From NCBI GenBank assembly GCA_963848135.1, contig CAWKCK010000018.1, forward strand, positions 200,938 to 264,937: a stretch of 64,000 nt of DNA, in the 5' to 3' direction. Below are positions 16,001 through 22,000 of this stretch, in pieces. The stretch's first letter is position 1. Every line of letters starts with the position of its first letter. This stretch comes from an uncultured delta proteobacterium (GTDB lineage: Bacteria; Desulfobacterota; Desulfobacteria; Desulfobacterales; SG8-13). Position numbers: made by a program.

Positions 16001-19000
16001 CTCCGGTGTTAGCGCTTCAATCCGGGATAAGTCACCAGAGCCGTCCTCCAACAGCGCCAGGCCATAAAGAATCGAACATTTTCGGAGTACGAGGCGAGCG
16101 GCCGCTTCAATAATTGAAAAGGTGTGCCGGACGGCTTGTCGATGAAATTCCGCCGCGCCATCCGCCTTCCCCAGACCGATCGTCAGCATCTTGCACAAAC
16201 CACTTTCGATGTCTGCCCGAAATTTCGTGTGAGGTTTTACACGGTTGATGACAACGATGTGGTCGGCGGCCAATGCTGCCCTGGAAAAGCAGATCTTCGT
16301 GCCATTGGAAAGCCGATCGACGACCTCCACCGCCATGTCAGGCTCGACCGGGATCCCCAAGGTGCTCTCGCAGATACCCAACTTTTCCAGAACGGCATGT
16401 TGTCCCTTGGCCGTCGCACCACCGTGACTGCCCATTGCCGGAACGATGAATGGCTTTAGTTGTTTTTGACACAAGAAATCGATGCACGCACTGGCGACCG
16501 TACCGATGGCGTTGATGCCGCGGCTTCCAACAGCTACCGCCACCGTTTGTCCGGGTTGATAGACCCCGTTAAGATCCAGACCTTTCAAAGCAGCATGAAC
16601 CGCCCCGGGGACATCGACGATCGCCGCCCGATGCAGTTTCTGCCGGACCAGTGCCATATCGGGAAAGGATTGAGAAGTTCTACTCGTCATGGTCTTTTTC
16701 TGGATTCAGTAAGCACAAGTCAAGCCGGAAGAATGAACGTTGTTTTAGATGATTTTTGTGTGACTGAAAGTGGTTGCCGGATTGGAAAGAATCATGCAGG
16801 AAGAAATTGCCTCCGGGATGTCGGCAGGATGGACCTGGAGCATGGCCTTTCGGAACCGCTACACAATCAGTTCCGAAAGGCGAGCAGAACAGTTTAGGTC
16901 TCTTCGACAGTGATGGCGCCAGGTTCGCAAACTTCAATGCAGCTTTCACAACCGAGGCATTCTTCAGCATTCACCGGACTCGATTTTCCGTCCTGCATTT
17001 CAAACACTTCGACTGGGCAAACATCCACACACTCTTCACAACCTTCACATTTGTCCTCATCAACAATGGGGTTGAAAGCCATAACCGAATTCTCCTTTCT
17101 TGAGATTTTGGAAAAAGGTGATCCACATCACCTGTTGCTTCCAAACATGGAAAAAAGTCTTTATACCAATTAAAAAGGCGAGTCAAGCCTTGTTGTATTT
17201 TTATCGTCGATACAGAAATTCGAATGGATGACCATAAGAATTATCTTTAATTCTTACTGGTTATGAATATAAATTCAAATTTCTATCAAGGCGACAACTG
17301 TGTTTTCTGGTTCTGGACCCAACGTTTGATCTTTCTTTAGAAATTCGGATTGCAGACCGACCGACTTATGAAATAAAGCTCTCGGAGACTTGCCGGCGAT
17401 CAGAAATACCGTCAGTTTTAGCCGCTGTGCGGCATCATCTAATTTGGGAACCATGGGCCAATCCATCCCGGTTGCCGTTTCCAGGGCATGGTTAGCGCCC
17501 GTCACCAACTGGAGCCGATCCAGAAGTTGACGGCGCCAGTTTTTAAAAACTTGCGGATTGTTGCCAACCACTGGAATGTCTTCCATCGTAAACATTTTTA
17601 CAGCATCGGCCATCACGGCAACAGAGTGGTCAACAGCTGGCCGGCTGGTCGTAACAAAAATCCCGGGAAGGTTCGTATCGGCCGACTCGGCAACGCCAGC
17701 CACCAGGAGCCACCAGGCCCGAAGACGCTCTTGGATCATATAGTCCTGCTGCATACCGGAGCCCGTCGCCACAGGACTGGCTGGTTGCGGTGCGGGGGCA
17801 CCGCCGTTCAGTTCGCTGAAAAGCTTTTTCTCGAATTCATCATGCCGCCGCAAGTCTGTCGCCAGGGCTTCGGCCCCCAAGTCCATTTCCTGGGCGATAC
17901 TGAGGAAAACCCTTGCGCTGAAAAACCGCGATACGGACGCCGATTCTCTGGGAATTCTTCCCCTTTTGATGTCGGCCCGAATTTGTGCCACGGACGTCTC
18001 ATCGAAATACGGCACCTTGCCCATGTGTGACCTGAAGTAGTCGAAACCTGTGCGATGCTGGCCACCGTACATGGCAGCCCAATTACGATAGTCCTTCAAC
18101 ACGAGGGCGAGTCGGTCCTCGTCACCTCTTGGTGGAACGATCATTTCAATCAACTCTCCCTGTTCCCATTCACGCATGACGTTAGGGACATCCCGTCGGG
18201 AGGGCTGATATACCACCACGGGGCTAAAACATGTTTGAATCGCCGCCATGCTCGCCACCGGTATGTACGTTTGTGGATAGCAAATGGGTCTCATTCTATC
18301 TGCTCCTGCGCTGGTTCGGGGCGATAACCCCCTTATTAAGCATTATCGTATCCGATAGTATCTGATTGACGGCTACCGATGGGGCCTTTGTGTCCGCTGC
18401 CTGACAGCGAAAAGTAAGGCCCGGCCTGAAAACTCCCGCACCCAGGGATGTCAGGCGTTCCCGAATTTCTGGTCTTGAACACTCACTCCCATACTTCTGA
18501 GCTGCTCACGAAGCCTATCGGCCACGACCCAGTTGTGGTCGGCGCGTGCCTTATCTCTCTCCCGCACCAGCGCTGCGATGGCCGGGTCGTTTTGCTGACC
18601 GACGAAATCAATCACGTTCAAAACACCGTCCAAACTTTGAAATGCATCGAGGATTTTTCGGGCGCCTTCCAGGTCTATCCGTTGATTCTTAATCAGCTGG
18701 TTTACTTTTTTGACGACTTTGAAGACAGCTGCCAAAGCGGCTGGAATGTTCATATCGTCATCAAGACCGCTGGTGAATCCGTGTCTGAGGTCATATAGTA
18801 GTTGGTCAAGTTCGGGATATGACGGGCCTGACTTCACGCCGCGCAAATTGCGGATGCAATTGTTCAGGCGGTTCAGTGACCGCTGGGCGTCATCCAATCT
18901 ACCCCGCCTAAAGGCCACCGGCTTGCGGTAGGAAGATGTGATCAGCCAGAACCGGATCACCTTGTCTGGGTAGCCCAAGGCTTGCAGATCGGCCAGGGCC

Positions 19001-22000
19001 AATCCGGGACTCTTGTTATCTACTTTATGACCATCGGCCAATACCAAATCAGAATCGATCCAATATGTTGCCAGCGGCTTTCCAGTGGCGGCTGTGGCAA
19101 TGGCATTGACATTCTCGTGATGGGGAAACATCAACTCGCGGCTGCTGGCGTGGATGTCAAACTGCTCACCGAGGTATTTATTTGAAATGGCCGAGGCCTG
19201 CAGATGCCAGGACGGCCGCACATTGCCCCACGCGGTTTTTATATAAATACCTCTTTTCAGCTCCGACAAGCGGGCGCGCTTGAACAGGGTAAAATCTCTT
19301 GGATTGTCCTTTTCATATTCGTCCAAGTCAACCGTTGCTCCGATACGAATTTTGTTGATGTCAATACCTGAAAGCTGGCCGTATTGGGATAAACGCGATA
19401 TATCGAAATAAAGGGATCGGAGCTTTTCGTAGGCAAAACCTTTCTGTACCAACCGATCGGCCAGTTCAACCATATCATCGAGATGCTCACTGGTTCGCGC
19501 GAGAATTTCGGCCGGTCTAATGCCAAGGGTATCCAGGTCGTGCCTAAACTGCTCGATATGTCGATTTGTATAAACCCCCAGATCCTCGCCAGCGGCTTCG
19601 GAACCTGAAATCGTCTTGTCATCCAGATCGGCAATGTTTATGACGTGATTGAGTGTGTAACCTCGGAAAACCAAATATCTGCAGAGCAAATCTGAAACAA
19701 TGAAGCGCCGCATTTCACCAAGATGGATCGGTGCGTGGGCCGTCGGTCCGCACGTACAGATGGAAACTTTTCCCGGAACCGCCGGTACAAAGGGTTCCTT
19801 CGATCGGCTCATGGTGTTGAACAACTTTAAATCGACCTTTTCCTTAACGACGAACAGCGGTGTGCTCAAATAGCGTTCCCCGCCGTCGGGTAAAATCACC
19901 ACAATCGTACCGGTCTCCATGGCCTGGGCCTCCCGAGCAGCGATCGCCATGGCCGCACCGCTGCTCATACCAACCAGCAGTCCCTCATCCCGGGCCATAC
20001 GTCGGGTCATTTCAAAGGCCTCTTCGTCATCGATGTTGATCTTTTTATCCAGAAGGTTCTTATCAAAAATTTCCGGGCAGTAGGCCTCCTTCATATTTTT
20101 CAGACCTTGGATTTTGTGGCCAAGATAGGGTTCGATACCAATGATCTGAATCGCCGGATCGTATTCTTTCAACTTTCTGGCCAGGCCCATGAGCGTGCCG
20201 GATGTCCCCAGGGTTGCCACAACGGCGGAGAGTTTCCCCCCGGTCTGCTCCCAGATCTCAACGGCTGTGCCGTTGTAGTGCGCTTGCCAGTTGGCTGGAT
20301 TATTGAACTGATCTGTCATGAAATAGGTTTCAGGATTCTCTCGCACCAAACGGTAGACTTCTTCAATGGCCCCGTCCGTGCCAAGGTGCCCGGGGGTCAA
20401 CAGGATTTCAGCCCCACGGGCTTTTAATATTTTCTGGCGTTCCACACTCACCGCCTCAGACATGGCCAGCAGCAACTGGTAACCCTTGACAGAGCAAACC
20501 AGCGCCAAGCCAATCCCGGTATTTCCGGATGTGGCCTCGATAACGATTTTATCGGCAGTCAGTTCGCCAGATCCTTCGCCAGCTTCGATCATTGACAGGG
20601 CCGCCCGGTCTTTTATGGAACCACCGGGATTGAAATACTCCAACTTAGCCAACACCTTCACCCCCGGATTAGGGTTGAGGTGGCGTATTTCCACCACAGG
20701 CGTATTGCCGATTAGATCGAGAATTGATTGTCCCATCTTTACCCACCGTTGATTCAGTGTTTTCTTCTTTTGTGTCTACCAATCAATGCTCGATGGCATG
20801 CTTGCGTGTTCCATTTCGGGATGGAAACGTTATAGATCCATTGTCGCCGACAAACCCAGAGCAGCTAACACGAATTTGAAAAGCCGAAAGGCTCGAAACA
20901 TTCGTTTAGGACTTTAGCACCTGCCGAAGGCCGATCAGGATTTCGTTCTGAACCGTACGGGGGTCGTGTGACGCATCGACGACATAAAAACGCTCCGGTT
21001 CGCTGCGAGCGATGGTCTGGTAGCCGGCGCGGATCTTTTCATGAAAAGTCAGTGCTTCCTCTTCAAACCGGCTTTCATCTCCGGTCCGCCCACCGTTTTT
21101 GATTTGAGCCCAGGCTCTTGCCAGCCCGATTTCCGGTGACACATCCAGCAGGATGGTTAAATCCGGCTTCAAGGCACCAAGGATTGCCTGGTGAATCCGC
21201 CGGATCAACTCTAAATCCAATCCTCGTGCGTATCCTTGATAGACGATCGTCGCATCGTAGAAGCGGTCACACAGAACCGTACGCCCGGCCGTCAGGGCAG
21301 GCATGATGATTTTATGCACATGTTCGACCCGATCAGCCTCATATAGAAAAAGCTCGGCCAGGGGATCGATCTGTCGGTTGGCCGGATTCAAAAGGATCGC
21401 ACGAATATTCTCTCCGATGCCGGTCCCACCCGGTTCGCGTGTGACCAGGACATTGTGACCCTGGTTTTCCAGAAAACGGCGGATGTTGCCCAATTGGGTG
21501 GATTTTCCCGAGCCTTCAATACCTTCCAGGGTGATAAACATTTTCTAATCCTGTCCCCCAATTTCGCTGCGGCCGCGGTAGAAATGCCGTTCCAGAAGGC
21601 GATGATAGGATGTCCAAGGCTCGTTGGGATTCTCACCGGCCATGAAATCACGAATGCCGTTAACGCGAGCATCGATTTCATCGATATAATTGAGCAGCAC
21701 GGCCTCGATGGTCTTGGGTGGTTCCGGGGATCCGAATTCACGGGCGCCGTGATGACTGATGATCATATGCTTCAGCAATACAGCCTGTAGTGGTGGAAAA
21801 TCCTCTAGCATGCGCAGCTTTTCCTCGAGAATCTGGACGGCAATAACAATGTGGCTGACCAGCCGGCCTTCATCAGAATAATCGATCTTCGAATCGTATT
21901 CAAACTCGCGAATTTTTCCGATATCGTGCAGAATTGCCCCGGCGATCAACATATCTCTATCGATACCGCTGTAATGGGGAATGATCCGGTCCGCCAGAAC

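Follow-up and report, generated by a model that had tools for sequence, protein, structure and literature searches.

A cysteine synthase fused to a cysteinyl-tRNA synthetase paralog with degenerate ligase motifs and conserved tRNA-contact modules in Desulfobacterota

The window analysed here, a stretch of 64,000 nucleotides from an uncultured delta proteobacterium of the order Desulfobacterales, encodes on its minus strand a protein in which a cysteine synthase is joined to a paralog of cysteinyl-tRNA synthetase (CysRS). The parts of this gene and its neighbours are as follows.

18451..20736, minus strand: whole fusion reading frame (P0001), 761 amino acids plus stop (ORF translation and Pfam)
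19849..20736, minus strand: CysM-like PLP cysteine synthase domain, residues 1-296 (PALP, E=5.6e-71; TIGR01136)
20611..20613, minus strand: codon of the PLP-binding lysine K42 (K42 in 49/49 sequences of alignment A1)
19831..19848, minus strand: short linker, residues 297-302 (pLDDT <50 at residues 297-299)
18877..19830, minus strand: CysRS-like Rossmann fold with CP insertion and SC-fold, residues 303-620, with degenerate ATP site (tRNA-synt_1e, E=9.4e-69; alignments)
19714..19725, minus strand: HIGH remnant H338-L-G-E341 (alignment to E. coli CysRS)
19009..19026, minus strand: KMSKS remnant K571-V-D-N-K-S576 (alignment to E. coli CysRS)
18592..18876, minus strand: helical bundle/DALR region, residues 621-715 (DALR_2, E=9.9e-10)
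18454..18591, minus strand: anticodon-binding domain (ABD), residues 716-761 (CysS_C, E=5.8e-8)
20906..21541, minus strand: thymidylate kinase, upstream neighbour (domain search; neighbourhood comparison)
17275..18294, minus strand: 339-residue protein, downstream neighbour (domain search; homologue in 4/21 loci)
16894..17082, minus strand: 62-residue 2x[4Fe-4S] ferredoxin (Fer4_7, E=3.3e-14)

Translation of the reading frame confirmed the fusion described in an earlier note on this DNA, with Pfam bounds exactly as given there (PALP 6-284, tRNA-synt_1e 316-618, DALR_2 654-707 and CysS_C 718-757), and the CysRS-like body is full length (residues 303-761). In an AF2 model of the fusion (pLDDT 88.8, pTM 0.72) this half superimposes on tRNA-bound E. 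coli CysRS (1u0b_B) with a TMt of 0.85 at 31-32% sequence identity, and the model indicates that the CysRS fold is preserved: like canonical CysRS (E. coli CysS; 1LI5, 1U0B), the half carries the complete set of domains in the canonical order, namely a Rossmann fold with CP insertion, an SC-fold, a helical bundle and a C-terminal ABD. The fusion is accompanied by thymidylate kinase (tmk), an HD-OB protein, an unfamilied protein and the ferredoxin, with no selB among these neighbours. The claim that the neighbours are conserved holds for thymidylate kinase within the order (5 of 21 loci) and fails outside it. The 339-residue protein, which has no match in Pfam or NCBIfam and whose best Atlas match (0.85) is a lead only, is likewise a conserved companion of the fusion within the order alone (4 of 21 loci). 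Across the 21 loci the neighbourhood gave no functional hint outside the order, and a search for structured or cis-regulatory RNA families around the gene found none.

The N-terminal half carries all catalytic motifs of the CysM and CysK O-acetylserine sulfhydrylases (2BHS, 2JC3, 2Q3B), namely S-I-K42-D-R, TSGNTG, GTSGT and MSSGA, which we take to supply the PLP lysine, the Asn loop, the Gly-rich phosphate loop and the Ser facing PLP N1, respectively. The patterns SxKDR, TSGNTG, GTxGT and xSSGA are invariant across every fusion aligned, in agreement with the earlier claim that the PLP lysine is kept. Among NCBIfam models, the half passes TIGR01136 cysKM (355.7 bits, cut-off 344.15) and misses the equivalogs cysM (343.7 vs 394.2) and cysK (317.5 vs 350.95); its predicted structure matches the CysM structures 2bhs/2jc3 with a TMt of 0.96-0.97, and it shares 53-56% sequence identity with stand-alone cysteine synthases of the ordinary kind from many phyla. 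Judged from its sequence, the half is probably an active CysM-type cysteine synthase with an intact PLP site. The same genome has a separate cysE-cysK pair (C1:106824-108288), and the CysM-like half branches apart from this cysE-adjacent CysK. What sets the fusion apart from CysM and CysK is the 460-residue CysRS-like body at its C terminus. Cystathionine beta-synthase, found among the sequence and fold matches, likewise joins a C-terminal domain to a CysK-fold PLP core; its regulatory module consists of two paired CBS domains and binds AdoMet, whereas the C-terminal module of the fusion has a synthetase fold.

Besides being fused to a PLP enzyme, the CysRS-like half differs from E. coli CysS at its signature motifs and pocket residues. 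HIGH is replaced by HLGE, in keeping with the H-[VL]-G-E reported earlier, and KMSKS by KVDNKS; the K-V-D-E-x-G also reported stands as the consensus of the order and not as the reading in this genome, and the accompanying two-residue deletion depends on the alignment, with HMMER giving a one-residue insertion and MAFFT a one-residue gap. In E. coli numbering, this copy also carries T68A (A369), C209A (A514), D229E and E238V (V543). Assuming that C28, C209, H234 and E238 act as zinc ligands here as in the E. coli CysRS structure, two of the four are kept (C28 as C329, the CGPT Cys; H234 as H539) while C209 and E238 are lost, matching the earlier observation that the WHIQC Cys is Ala in this genome.

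For residue counts, 63 relatives (38 of the order type, or D-type; 22 of a less decayed K-type from other families; and 3 of the most decayed X-type) were set against 66 canonical CysRS. The fourth HIGH residue, Asn in 53 and His in 13 of the 66 canonical enzymes (pattern H-x-G-[HN]), is Glu in 32 of the 38 D-type proteins. At the column of the second KMSKS lysine (E. coli K269), Lys is present in 66/66 canonical, 0/38 D-type and 0/22 K-type sequences, and in 1/3 of the X-type, whose alignment is poor at that spot. W184, G201, Q241 and K269, each 100% conserved in the canonical set, are replaced clade-wide in the fusions, where R168 is changed as well. The score against TIGR00435 cysS (NCBIfam, EC 6.1.1.16), 313.6 bits, lies below the cut-off of 340. 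The sequence suggests that the ligase chemistry of this half is lost, and the database name 'cysteine--tRNA ligase', given in the earlier note and seen by us alongside 'cysteinyl-tRNA synthetase' and 'cysteine synthase', is a mislabel.

It could be argued that the fusion is a working second CysRS, bifunctional in making cysteine and loading tRNA-Cys directly, that tolerates odd HIGH and KMSKS motifs. K-type relatives keep HLGN, WHIEC, HTSGxDL, PHHENE and KMSRS together with the zinc ligands C209 and H234 (22/22); an independent fusion from Nanoarchaeota (P0124) has fully canonical motifs, and a Patescibacteria MAG has adjacent cysK and cysS genes, so that the ancestral fusion was plausibly bifunctional. 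In the present protein, direct charging is nevertheless highly improbable given the Glu at HIGH-4, the missing second KMSKS lysine, the four further substitutions and the cysS score. The canonical CysRS mentioned in the earlier note is indeed present (C3:814279-815673, with HIGN, WHIEC and KMAKS), a separate CysRS accompanies the fusion in 116 of 120 genomes (canonical motifs in 15/15 checked), and Desulfovibrio-type members still keep the domain with every ligase motif gone. The earlier conclusion that the fusion is probably not a housekeeping ligase is strengthened by the losses at K269, the zinc ligands and T68, by the sub-cut-off cysS score and by the separate CysRS.

Two known CysRS paralogs were also compared. 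According to parts of Mukai et al. (PMC5389517), the CysRS* of some Desulfobacterales has no ABD, lies beside selB*/selC* and is a proposed tRNA charger. Although CysRS* comes from the same order, the fusion differs in having both an ABD and a CysM-like half and in lacking a selB neighbour; identity with CysRS* is ruled out by the ABD and by the tmk, HD-OB, unfamilied and ferredoxin neighbours. MshC (TIGR03447), an ATP-dependent cysteine ligase without anticodon domain, was rejected on its score (166.5 bits, cut-off 485.1) and on the presence of the ABD.

The family extends beyond Desulfobacterales: of 301 genomes sampled across the phylum, 120 carry the fusion with a full-length domain. Its near universality within the order was upheld on recount (105 of 121 genomes at E<=1e-150 and 84 of 91 good-quality ones, against an earlier 106 of 121 at E<=1e-100), and about 97 of the 121 have it full length in one frame. 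All 32 fusions sampled fall into a single clade, showing that the phylum-wide fusion arose once; it displays grades of decay. The X-type contributes only 3 proteins to the residue counts and 5 to the tree. All K-type and most order-type members keep C28, W205 and H234 of the Cys/Zn pocket; this genus and every X-type member have lost the zinc pocket but retain the ABD. Stepwise decay of catalytic motifs across lineages might be expected of a functionless remnant of a formerly bifunctional enzyme, yet that reading is scarcely credible beside the full-length, single-frame copies counted above and the slow evolution of the RS half, whose mean pairwise identity across the same 13 genomes (52%) is close to that of the essential canonical CysRS (57%). 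These sequences indicate strong purifying selection on the paralog half.

The anticodon domain retains R727, R731, W736, D740, R743 and D755, identical to E. coli R423, R427, W432, D436, R439 and D451, and these six positions are kept in 38/38 D-type, 22/22 K-type and 3/3 X-type relatives with a few conservative K/F/Y swaps, the W432 position being aromatic in 63/63. The relevant part of PMC12684709 gives Arg423, Arg427, Trp432 and Asp436 of CysRS as G34 contacts, and that of PMC13449415 names the same anticodon-domain residues. Around them, the ABD is only 43% identical overall. In the X-type, sites conserved in canonical CysRS are retained at 0.86 in the ABD and 0.70 in the CP module, and at 0.27-0.38 in the Rossmann and KMSKS regions; by sequence, no parts of the paralog half are better preserved than the ABD and the acceptor-side CP module.

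Several readings of this retention have to be weighed. ThrRS acts as a translational regulator on its own mRNA, and the fusion might similarly bind a different RNA, such as an mRNA leader, that imitates the anticodon arm of tRNA-Cys; with the kept anticodon-contact residues as its sole support, this is very improbable, as no structured RNA family lies around the gene and the conserved CP module would be needless for such a mimic. The PLP domain, being covalently joined to the tRNA modules, might instead act on a tRNA-esterified amino acid, or use Cys-tRNA-Cys supplied by the genuine CysRS as a donor, SepCysS and cyclodipeptide synthases being known parallels. We regard this as quite unlikely, since the PLP half conserves the TSGNTG loop, a feature typical of enzymes whose substrates are free amino acids, and resembles ordinary stand-alone synthases at the identity given above, and SepRS was not found in this genome. 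In its favour, tRNA modules kept with the ATP site lost recall cyclodipeptide synthases, described in a part of PMC2922099 as class I synthetase-derived users of aminoacyl-tRNA.

The ATP-site replacements are themselves conserved in the order (besides the Glu at HIGH-4, T168 in 38/38, Q208 in 37/38 and I241 in 37/38 D-type proteins). This conservation, the pocket residues shared by all K-type and most order-type members, and the cystathionine beta-synthase chains with C-terminal domain among the fold matches would suit a non-RNA regulatory or scaffold domain that senses a small molecule (cysteine or a new ligand in the altered pocket) or drives oligomerisation in the way of the C-terminal regulatory domain of cystathionine beta-synthase, as would HisZ, a non-adenylating HisRS paralog that, in the part of PMC9437257 concerned, mediates histidine inhibition. 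Such a domain is an unlikely answer, because it leaves unexplained both the six invariant anticodon-contact residues within so divergent an ABD and the retention of the ABD where the zinc pocket is gone. As a counterpoint, the replacements could form a new small-molecule pocket, instead of or besides tRNA sensing.

Taken together, retained tRNA contacts, lost ligase motifs and slow evolution point to a selected pseudo-synthetase that would bind tRNA-Cys, rather than a housekeeping ligase or a decaying remnant; the anticodon and CP retention, the purifying selection and the phylum-wide single origin are additions to the earlier reading, which proposed no function. The fusion shows two features of a regulatory pseudo-synthetase (a class defined by function and not by sequence), loss of the adenylation motifs and physical attachment to an effector enzyme; in such a protein, binding of tRNA or an amino acid would alter the activity of that enzyme. 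We hypothesise, tentatively and at somewhat less than even odds, that the fusion acts as a tRNA-Cys sensor and thereby gates or positions the making of cysteine, along the lines of GCN2 or HisZ. The CysRS-derived body would no longer carry out ATP-dependent cysteine activation, the chemistry of HIGH and KMSKS having been lost and, in this genome, the zinc/cysteine pocket being broken too. To judge from its conserved residues, it would bind tRNA-Cys (GCA) and thereby tune or position the fused synthase: free uncharged tRNA-Cys may signal cysteine shortage, and the signal would pass across the domain interface, turning the PLP domain on or relieving it.

GCN2 offers a model for such a fusion, as its HisRS-like pseudo-synthetase domain, fused to a kinase, binds uncharged tRNA to switch the kinase on; unlike the fusion, it is eukaryotic, has a kinase output and lacks specificity for one tRNA. 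Control of bacterial cysteine synthesis is usually exerted at serine acetyltransferase, and a cysE-cysK pair is present in this genome, so it is not obvious why a second synthase would need gating. HisZ, the regulatory subunit of ATP phosphoribosyltransferase, provides in the same part of PMC9437257 a precedent for a non-adenylating synthetase paralog linked to the pathway that makes its cognate amino acid, but is a class II, separate subunit that senses the free amino acid, whereas the paralog in the fusion is class I and covalently joined, with the ABD best kept.

Folding the two halves as separate chains gave a contact score of 0.52 against 0.19 for the best control, with at least 93% of contacts shared between runs and a partner pLDDT of 83 or more. 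The contact-score mark is reached by 116/157 solved complexes and 2/215 mismatches, and at 0.60 or under by only 18/157 solved complexes and both mismatches; the predicted interface is a weak pass, graded 'weak support'. Long-range coupling between anticodon and active site in CysRS is described in part of a preprint (10.1101/2025.02.14.638259). As the earlier note had stated of papers, we found no description of the fusion itself in print, and it suggests that tRNA and the supply of cysteine are connected in a way not yet described.

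A single reading frame joins a CysM-like synthase half (residues 1-296) to a CysRS-like half (residues 303-761):

18451..20736, minus strand: whole fusion ORF, single frame, 761 codons
Domains of the fusion by Pfam search (residues): PALP 6-284; tRNA-synt_1e 316-618; DALR_2 654-707; CysS_C 718-757

In NCBIfam, the N-terminal half falls into the cysKM subfamily (355.7 bits, cut-off 344.15) and the C-terminal half lies under the cysS equivalog cut-off (313.6 against 340). An AlphaFold2 model built from a 49-sequence alignment reached a mean pLDDT of 88.8 and a pTM of 0.72; confidence was low only at linker residues 297-299, in one loop of the CP insertion, around the KMSKS loop and at the very C-terminus. 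Superposing the CysRS-like half of the model on tRNA-bound E. coli CysRS (1u0b_B) gave a TMt of 0.85, and the best fold match of the synthase half is CysM (2bhs and 2jc3, TMt 0.96-0.97). Comparison of the model with known folds found no solved chain covering both halves.

We compared the two active sites in an alignment of 66 canonical CysRS representatives with 38 D-type fusions (from the order Desulfobacterales), 22 K-type fusions (from the phylum's other families) and a small sample of 3 X-type fusions (the most decayed, Desulfovibrio-type), numbering residues after E. coli cysS. The CysM-type catalytic site is intact: no aligned fusion departs from SxKDR (which holds the PLP lysine), TSGNTG, GTxGT or xSSGA. 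The CysRS fold, in turn, is without its ATP and cysteine-activation residues. The window's fusion reads H338-L-G-E341 at the HIGH position, K571-V-D-N-K-S at KMSKS and A-S-S-R-E at GGGxD. T68 has become Ala, and of the four zinc ligands two are gone (C209 to A514, E238 to V543). Across the fusion clade, several positions invariant in canonical CysRS are substituted everywhere.

CysRS positions in canonical enzymes and in fusions
K269: Lys in 66/66 canonical; Lys in 0/38 D-type and 0/22 K-type fusions
W184: Trp in 66/66 canonical; Phe or Leu in fusions
G201: Gly in 66/66 canonical; Val, Ile or Leu in fusions
Q241: Gln in 66/66 canonical; Ile in fusions
R168: Arg in 60/66 canonical; Thr in 38/38 D-type and 22/22 K-type fusions

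The tRNA-contact modules of the fusion, by comparison, are conserved. We counted, region by region, the canonical-conserved sites that the fusions keep, with borders placed at the E. coli domain limits.

Fraction of canonical-conserved sites retained
Anticodon-binding domain: D-type 0.89; K-type 0.95; X-type 0.86
CP insertion: D-type 0.76; K-type 0.79; X-type 0.70
Rossmann first half: D-type 0.83; K-type 0.85; X-type 0.38
Rossmann second half: D-type 0.66; K-type 0.83; X-type 0.37
SC-fold / KMSKS: D-type 0.56; K-type 0.76; X-type 0.27

Therefore, the parts that touch tRNA outlive the parts that perform the chemistry. The CP insertion touches the acceptor stem, in part according to the passage on CP1 in PMC5389517. 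At the other end of the tRNA, the available text of PMC12684709 describes hydrogen bonds to G34 from Arg427 and Asp436, stacking of Trp432 on G34 and a place for Arg423 in the G34 water network, and an excerpt of PMC13449415 reports mutagenesis of Arg427, Trp432, Asp436 and Arg439 as anticodon-domain residues. All of these residues (Arg423, Arg427, Trp432, Asp436 and Arg439), together with D451, are retained in 38/38 D-type, 22/22 K-type and 3/3 X-type proteins, the few fusions with substitutions at the contact residues carrying conservative K, F or Y only. Judged by these residues, the protein is probably a tRNA-Cys-binding pseudo-synthetase, not a ligase. The strongest rival has the CysRS-like body respond to a small molecule or serve as a scaffold, and it draws mainly on the conservation, within the order, of the residues that took over the ATP site.

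For a selection comparison, the fusion and the separate CysRS were taken from each of 13 genomes, and the mean pairwise identity was 57% for the separate CysRS, 52% for the CysRS-like half and 67% for the synthase half. As functionless drift would not follow an essential enzyme so closely, the CysRS-like half is not a remnant; the fusion is under purifying selection. As a ligase it is redundant with a true CysRS. A PF01406 match at E<=1e-125, stronger than that of any fusion's own domain (~1e-100 at best), identifies a separate CysRS in 109 of 120 fusion genomes, and 7 further were confirmed one by one. The other four show the fusion only, in assemblies 62%, 66%, 79% and 95% complete, and for three of them a separate CysRS does occur elsewhere in their family within the sample (families f17 and f55). 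HxG[HN], WHxEC and KM[SA]KS are present in all 15 separate CysRS genes inspected. Two or more PF01406 matches were rejected as proof of a second CysRS, the second match in one genome (G158) being MetRS, and the calls rest on E-value thresholds and direct checks.

The real CysRS of the window's genome (C3:814279-815673) is of an unusual subtype, with HCGGTDH, VHHTNE and, following NITD, an insert of 10 residues; its PF01406 match is only 1.3e-96 against ~1e-135 for most CysRS of the phylum, and the subtype recurs in two other genomes (G145 and G264) at 71% identity. Both tRNA-Cys(GCA) genes of this genome (C4:277396-277470 and C5:310020-310094) carry U73, and they differ at 12 of 75 positions, in the anticodon stem, variable region and T arm. 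The genome also holds an ordinary cysE-cysK pair (C1:106824-108288) and a third CysK-like gene. A search for SepRS returned only a 25-bit PheRS-like match, and thus there is no Sep route.

Distribution was assessed in an even draw of 301 genomes of the phylum, these samples being draws and not censuses. A full-length, single-frame fusion is present in 120 of them (E<=1e-190, 45-66% identity) and split or partial copies in 2 more; within the order it occurs in 105/121 genomes and 84/91 good-quality ones, which reproduces the order-level count of an earlier note. Among the holders with a name are Desulforapulum autotrophicum, Desulfatibacillum, Desulfobulbus, Desulfopila, Desulfocurvus and Desulfovibrionaceae MAGs, as well as Desulfovibrio ferrophilus, whose X-type protein (BBD06928.1) is annotated 'cysteine synthase'. 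In the synthase-half tree, the 32 fusions cluster in a single clade (SH-aLRT 93), separate from the 72 stand-alone enzymes, and in the CysRS-half tree the fusions fall within one 16-row clade (SH-aLRT 96) with a few stand-alone paralogs; one old fusion event agrees with both trees. Two proteins, P0139 (468 aa, 58 members) and P0138, are apparently truly stand-alone paralogs; a third look-alike, P0137, was rejected as a fragment of a 782-aa fusion. A CysK-CysRS fusion from a Nanoarchaeota MAG (P0124, MFW6014224.1) is fully canonical (HIGN, WHLEC, KMSKS) and of independent origin, and may be a true bifunctional enzyme of a small-genome archaeon. A candidate in a Patescibacteria MAG (L120:860-3276) proved to be cysK and a canonical cysS, adjacent and overlapping in different frames, possibly the precursor type of the fusion. 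Enzymes of the cysteine pathway are fused in other ways too: in P0269 (711 aa) a canonical CysRS is joined to a hexapeptide domain of serine acetyltransferase-like type, and in P0155 and P0158 (960-995 aa) a serine acetyltransferase follows two PALP domains in tandem.

In 21 loci of ~18 kb across the phylum, no neighbour is conserved beyond the order, and the genes around the fusion are housekeeping ones (tmk, adk, ispF, MurJ, a MiaB-like radical SAM protein and others). Features near the fusion in the window are:

15416-16690, minus strand: 424-aa protein downstream of the ferredoxin, NCBIfam 'nickel pincer cofactor-dependent isomerase, group 22' (473 bits against 400)
21545-22510, minus strand: 321-aa protein with OB-fold (tRNA_anti-codon) and HD domain, upstream of tmk
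22581..22994, minus strand: surE ORF, SurE profile 133-185
22856..23347, minus strand: overlapping surE ORF, SurE profile 1-133

Of the 21 loci, three have the OB-fold/HD protein together with the fusion: the window and two others of the order. The split surE (22581-23347) suggests a sequencing error, a frameshift or a pseudogene. The protein directly downstream of the fusion matches no Pfam or NCBIfam family, and its first Atlas match (0.85) is a lead only. Between 15000 and 24500 there is no Rfam match at E<=1, and a promoter and terminator scan gave sites no more numerous than in shuffles.

With regard to mechanism, we tentatively favour tRNA-sensing regulation or positioning, at somewhat less than even confidence. 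The CysRS-like body would bind tRNA-Cys and relay binding to the fused synthase, and the anticodon-to-active-site coupling of CysRS could have been co-opted for this relay; such long-range coupling is treated as an established CysRS property in the available part of a preprint (10.1101/2025.02.14.638259). Folded as separate chains, the halves gave weak support for a fixed interface, with a score of 0.52 against 0.19 for the best control. Of 157 solved complexes, 116 attained that mark, as did 2 of 215 mismatches; only 18 of the 157, and both mismatches, attained it at 0.60 or under. Very improbable, in our estimate, is a new tRNA-templated sulfur enzyme, in which the CysRS body, dead as a ligase, would hold (aminoacyl-)tRNA-Cys in place and the fold-type-II PLP domain would rewrite the tRNA-borne residue, for instance turning it by beta-replacement into a persulfide or selenocysteine, or restoring cysteine. 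This reading draws on the retained tRNA modules, the loss of the ATP site and the attached PLP enzyme; if true, it would add an unrecognised third indirect route to that of SepRS/SepCysS.

HisZ, the GCN2 domain, MshC, YadB and the cyclodipeptide synthases are synthetase paralogs that gave up charging, and each opened new biology; in function, the fusion's nearest precedents are HisZ and GCN2's HisRS-like domain. The known CysRS paralogs, according to the passages available from PMC9437257, are MshC and CysRS*, the latter described in an excerpt of PMC5389517 as without anticodon domain and sitting with selB*/selC*; neither matches the fusion protein. We found no description of a cysteine synthase-CysRS fusion in the main texts of the open full-text literature searched, nor in passages of PMC2922099, PMC5388404, PMC8762117, PMC5424206, PMC9437257 and PMC5389517. 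Hundreds of database entries name the protein 'cysteine--tRNA ligase' or plain 'cysteine synthase', and genome-scale models are wrong where it is counted as CysRS or its extra domain is missed. Its role is testable because cultured holders exist (Desulforapulum autotrophicum and Desulfovibrio ferrophilus). The fusion occurs in ~40% of the genomes sampled from a phylum that is a major group of sulfate reducers and syntrophs. It would be the first CysRS-derived case in which the anticodon reader is kept and the body is joined covalently to the enzyme making its amino acid; if tRNA-Cys is sensed, it would also be a protein-based equivalent, in bacteria, of GCN2 or T-box logic that works on an enzyme directly.
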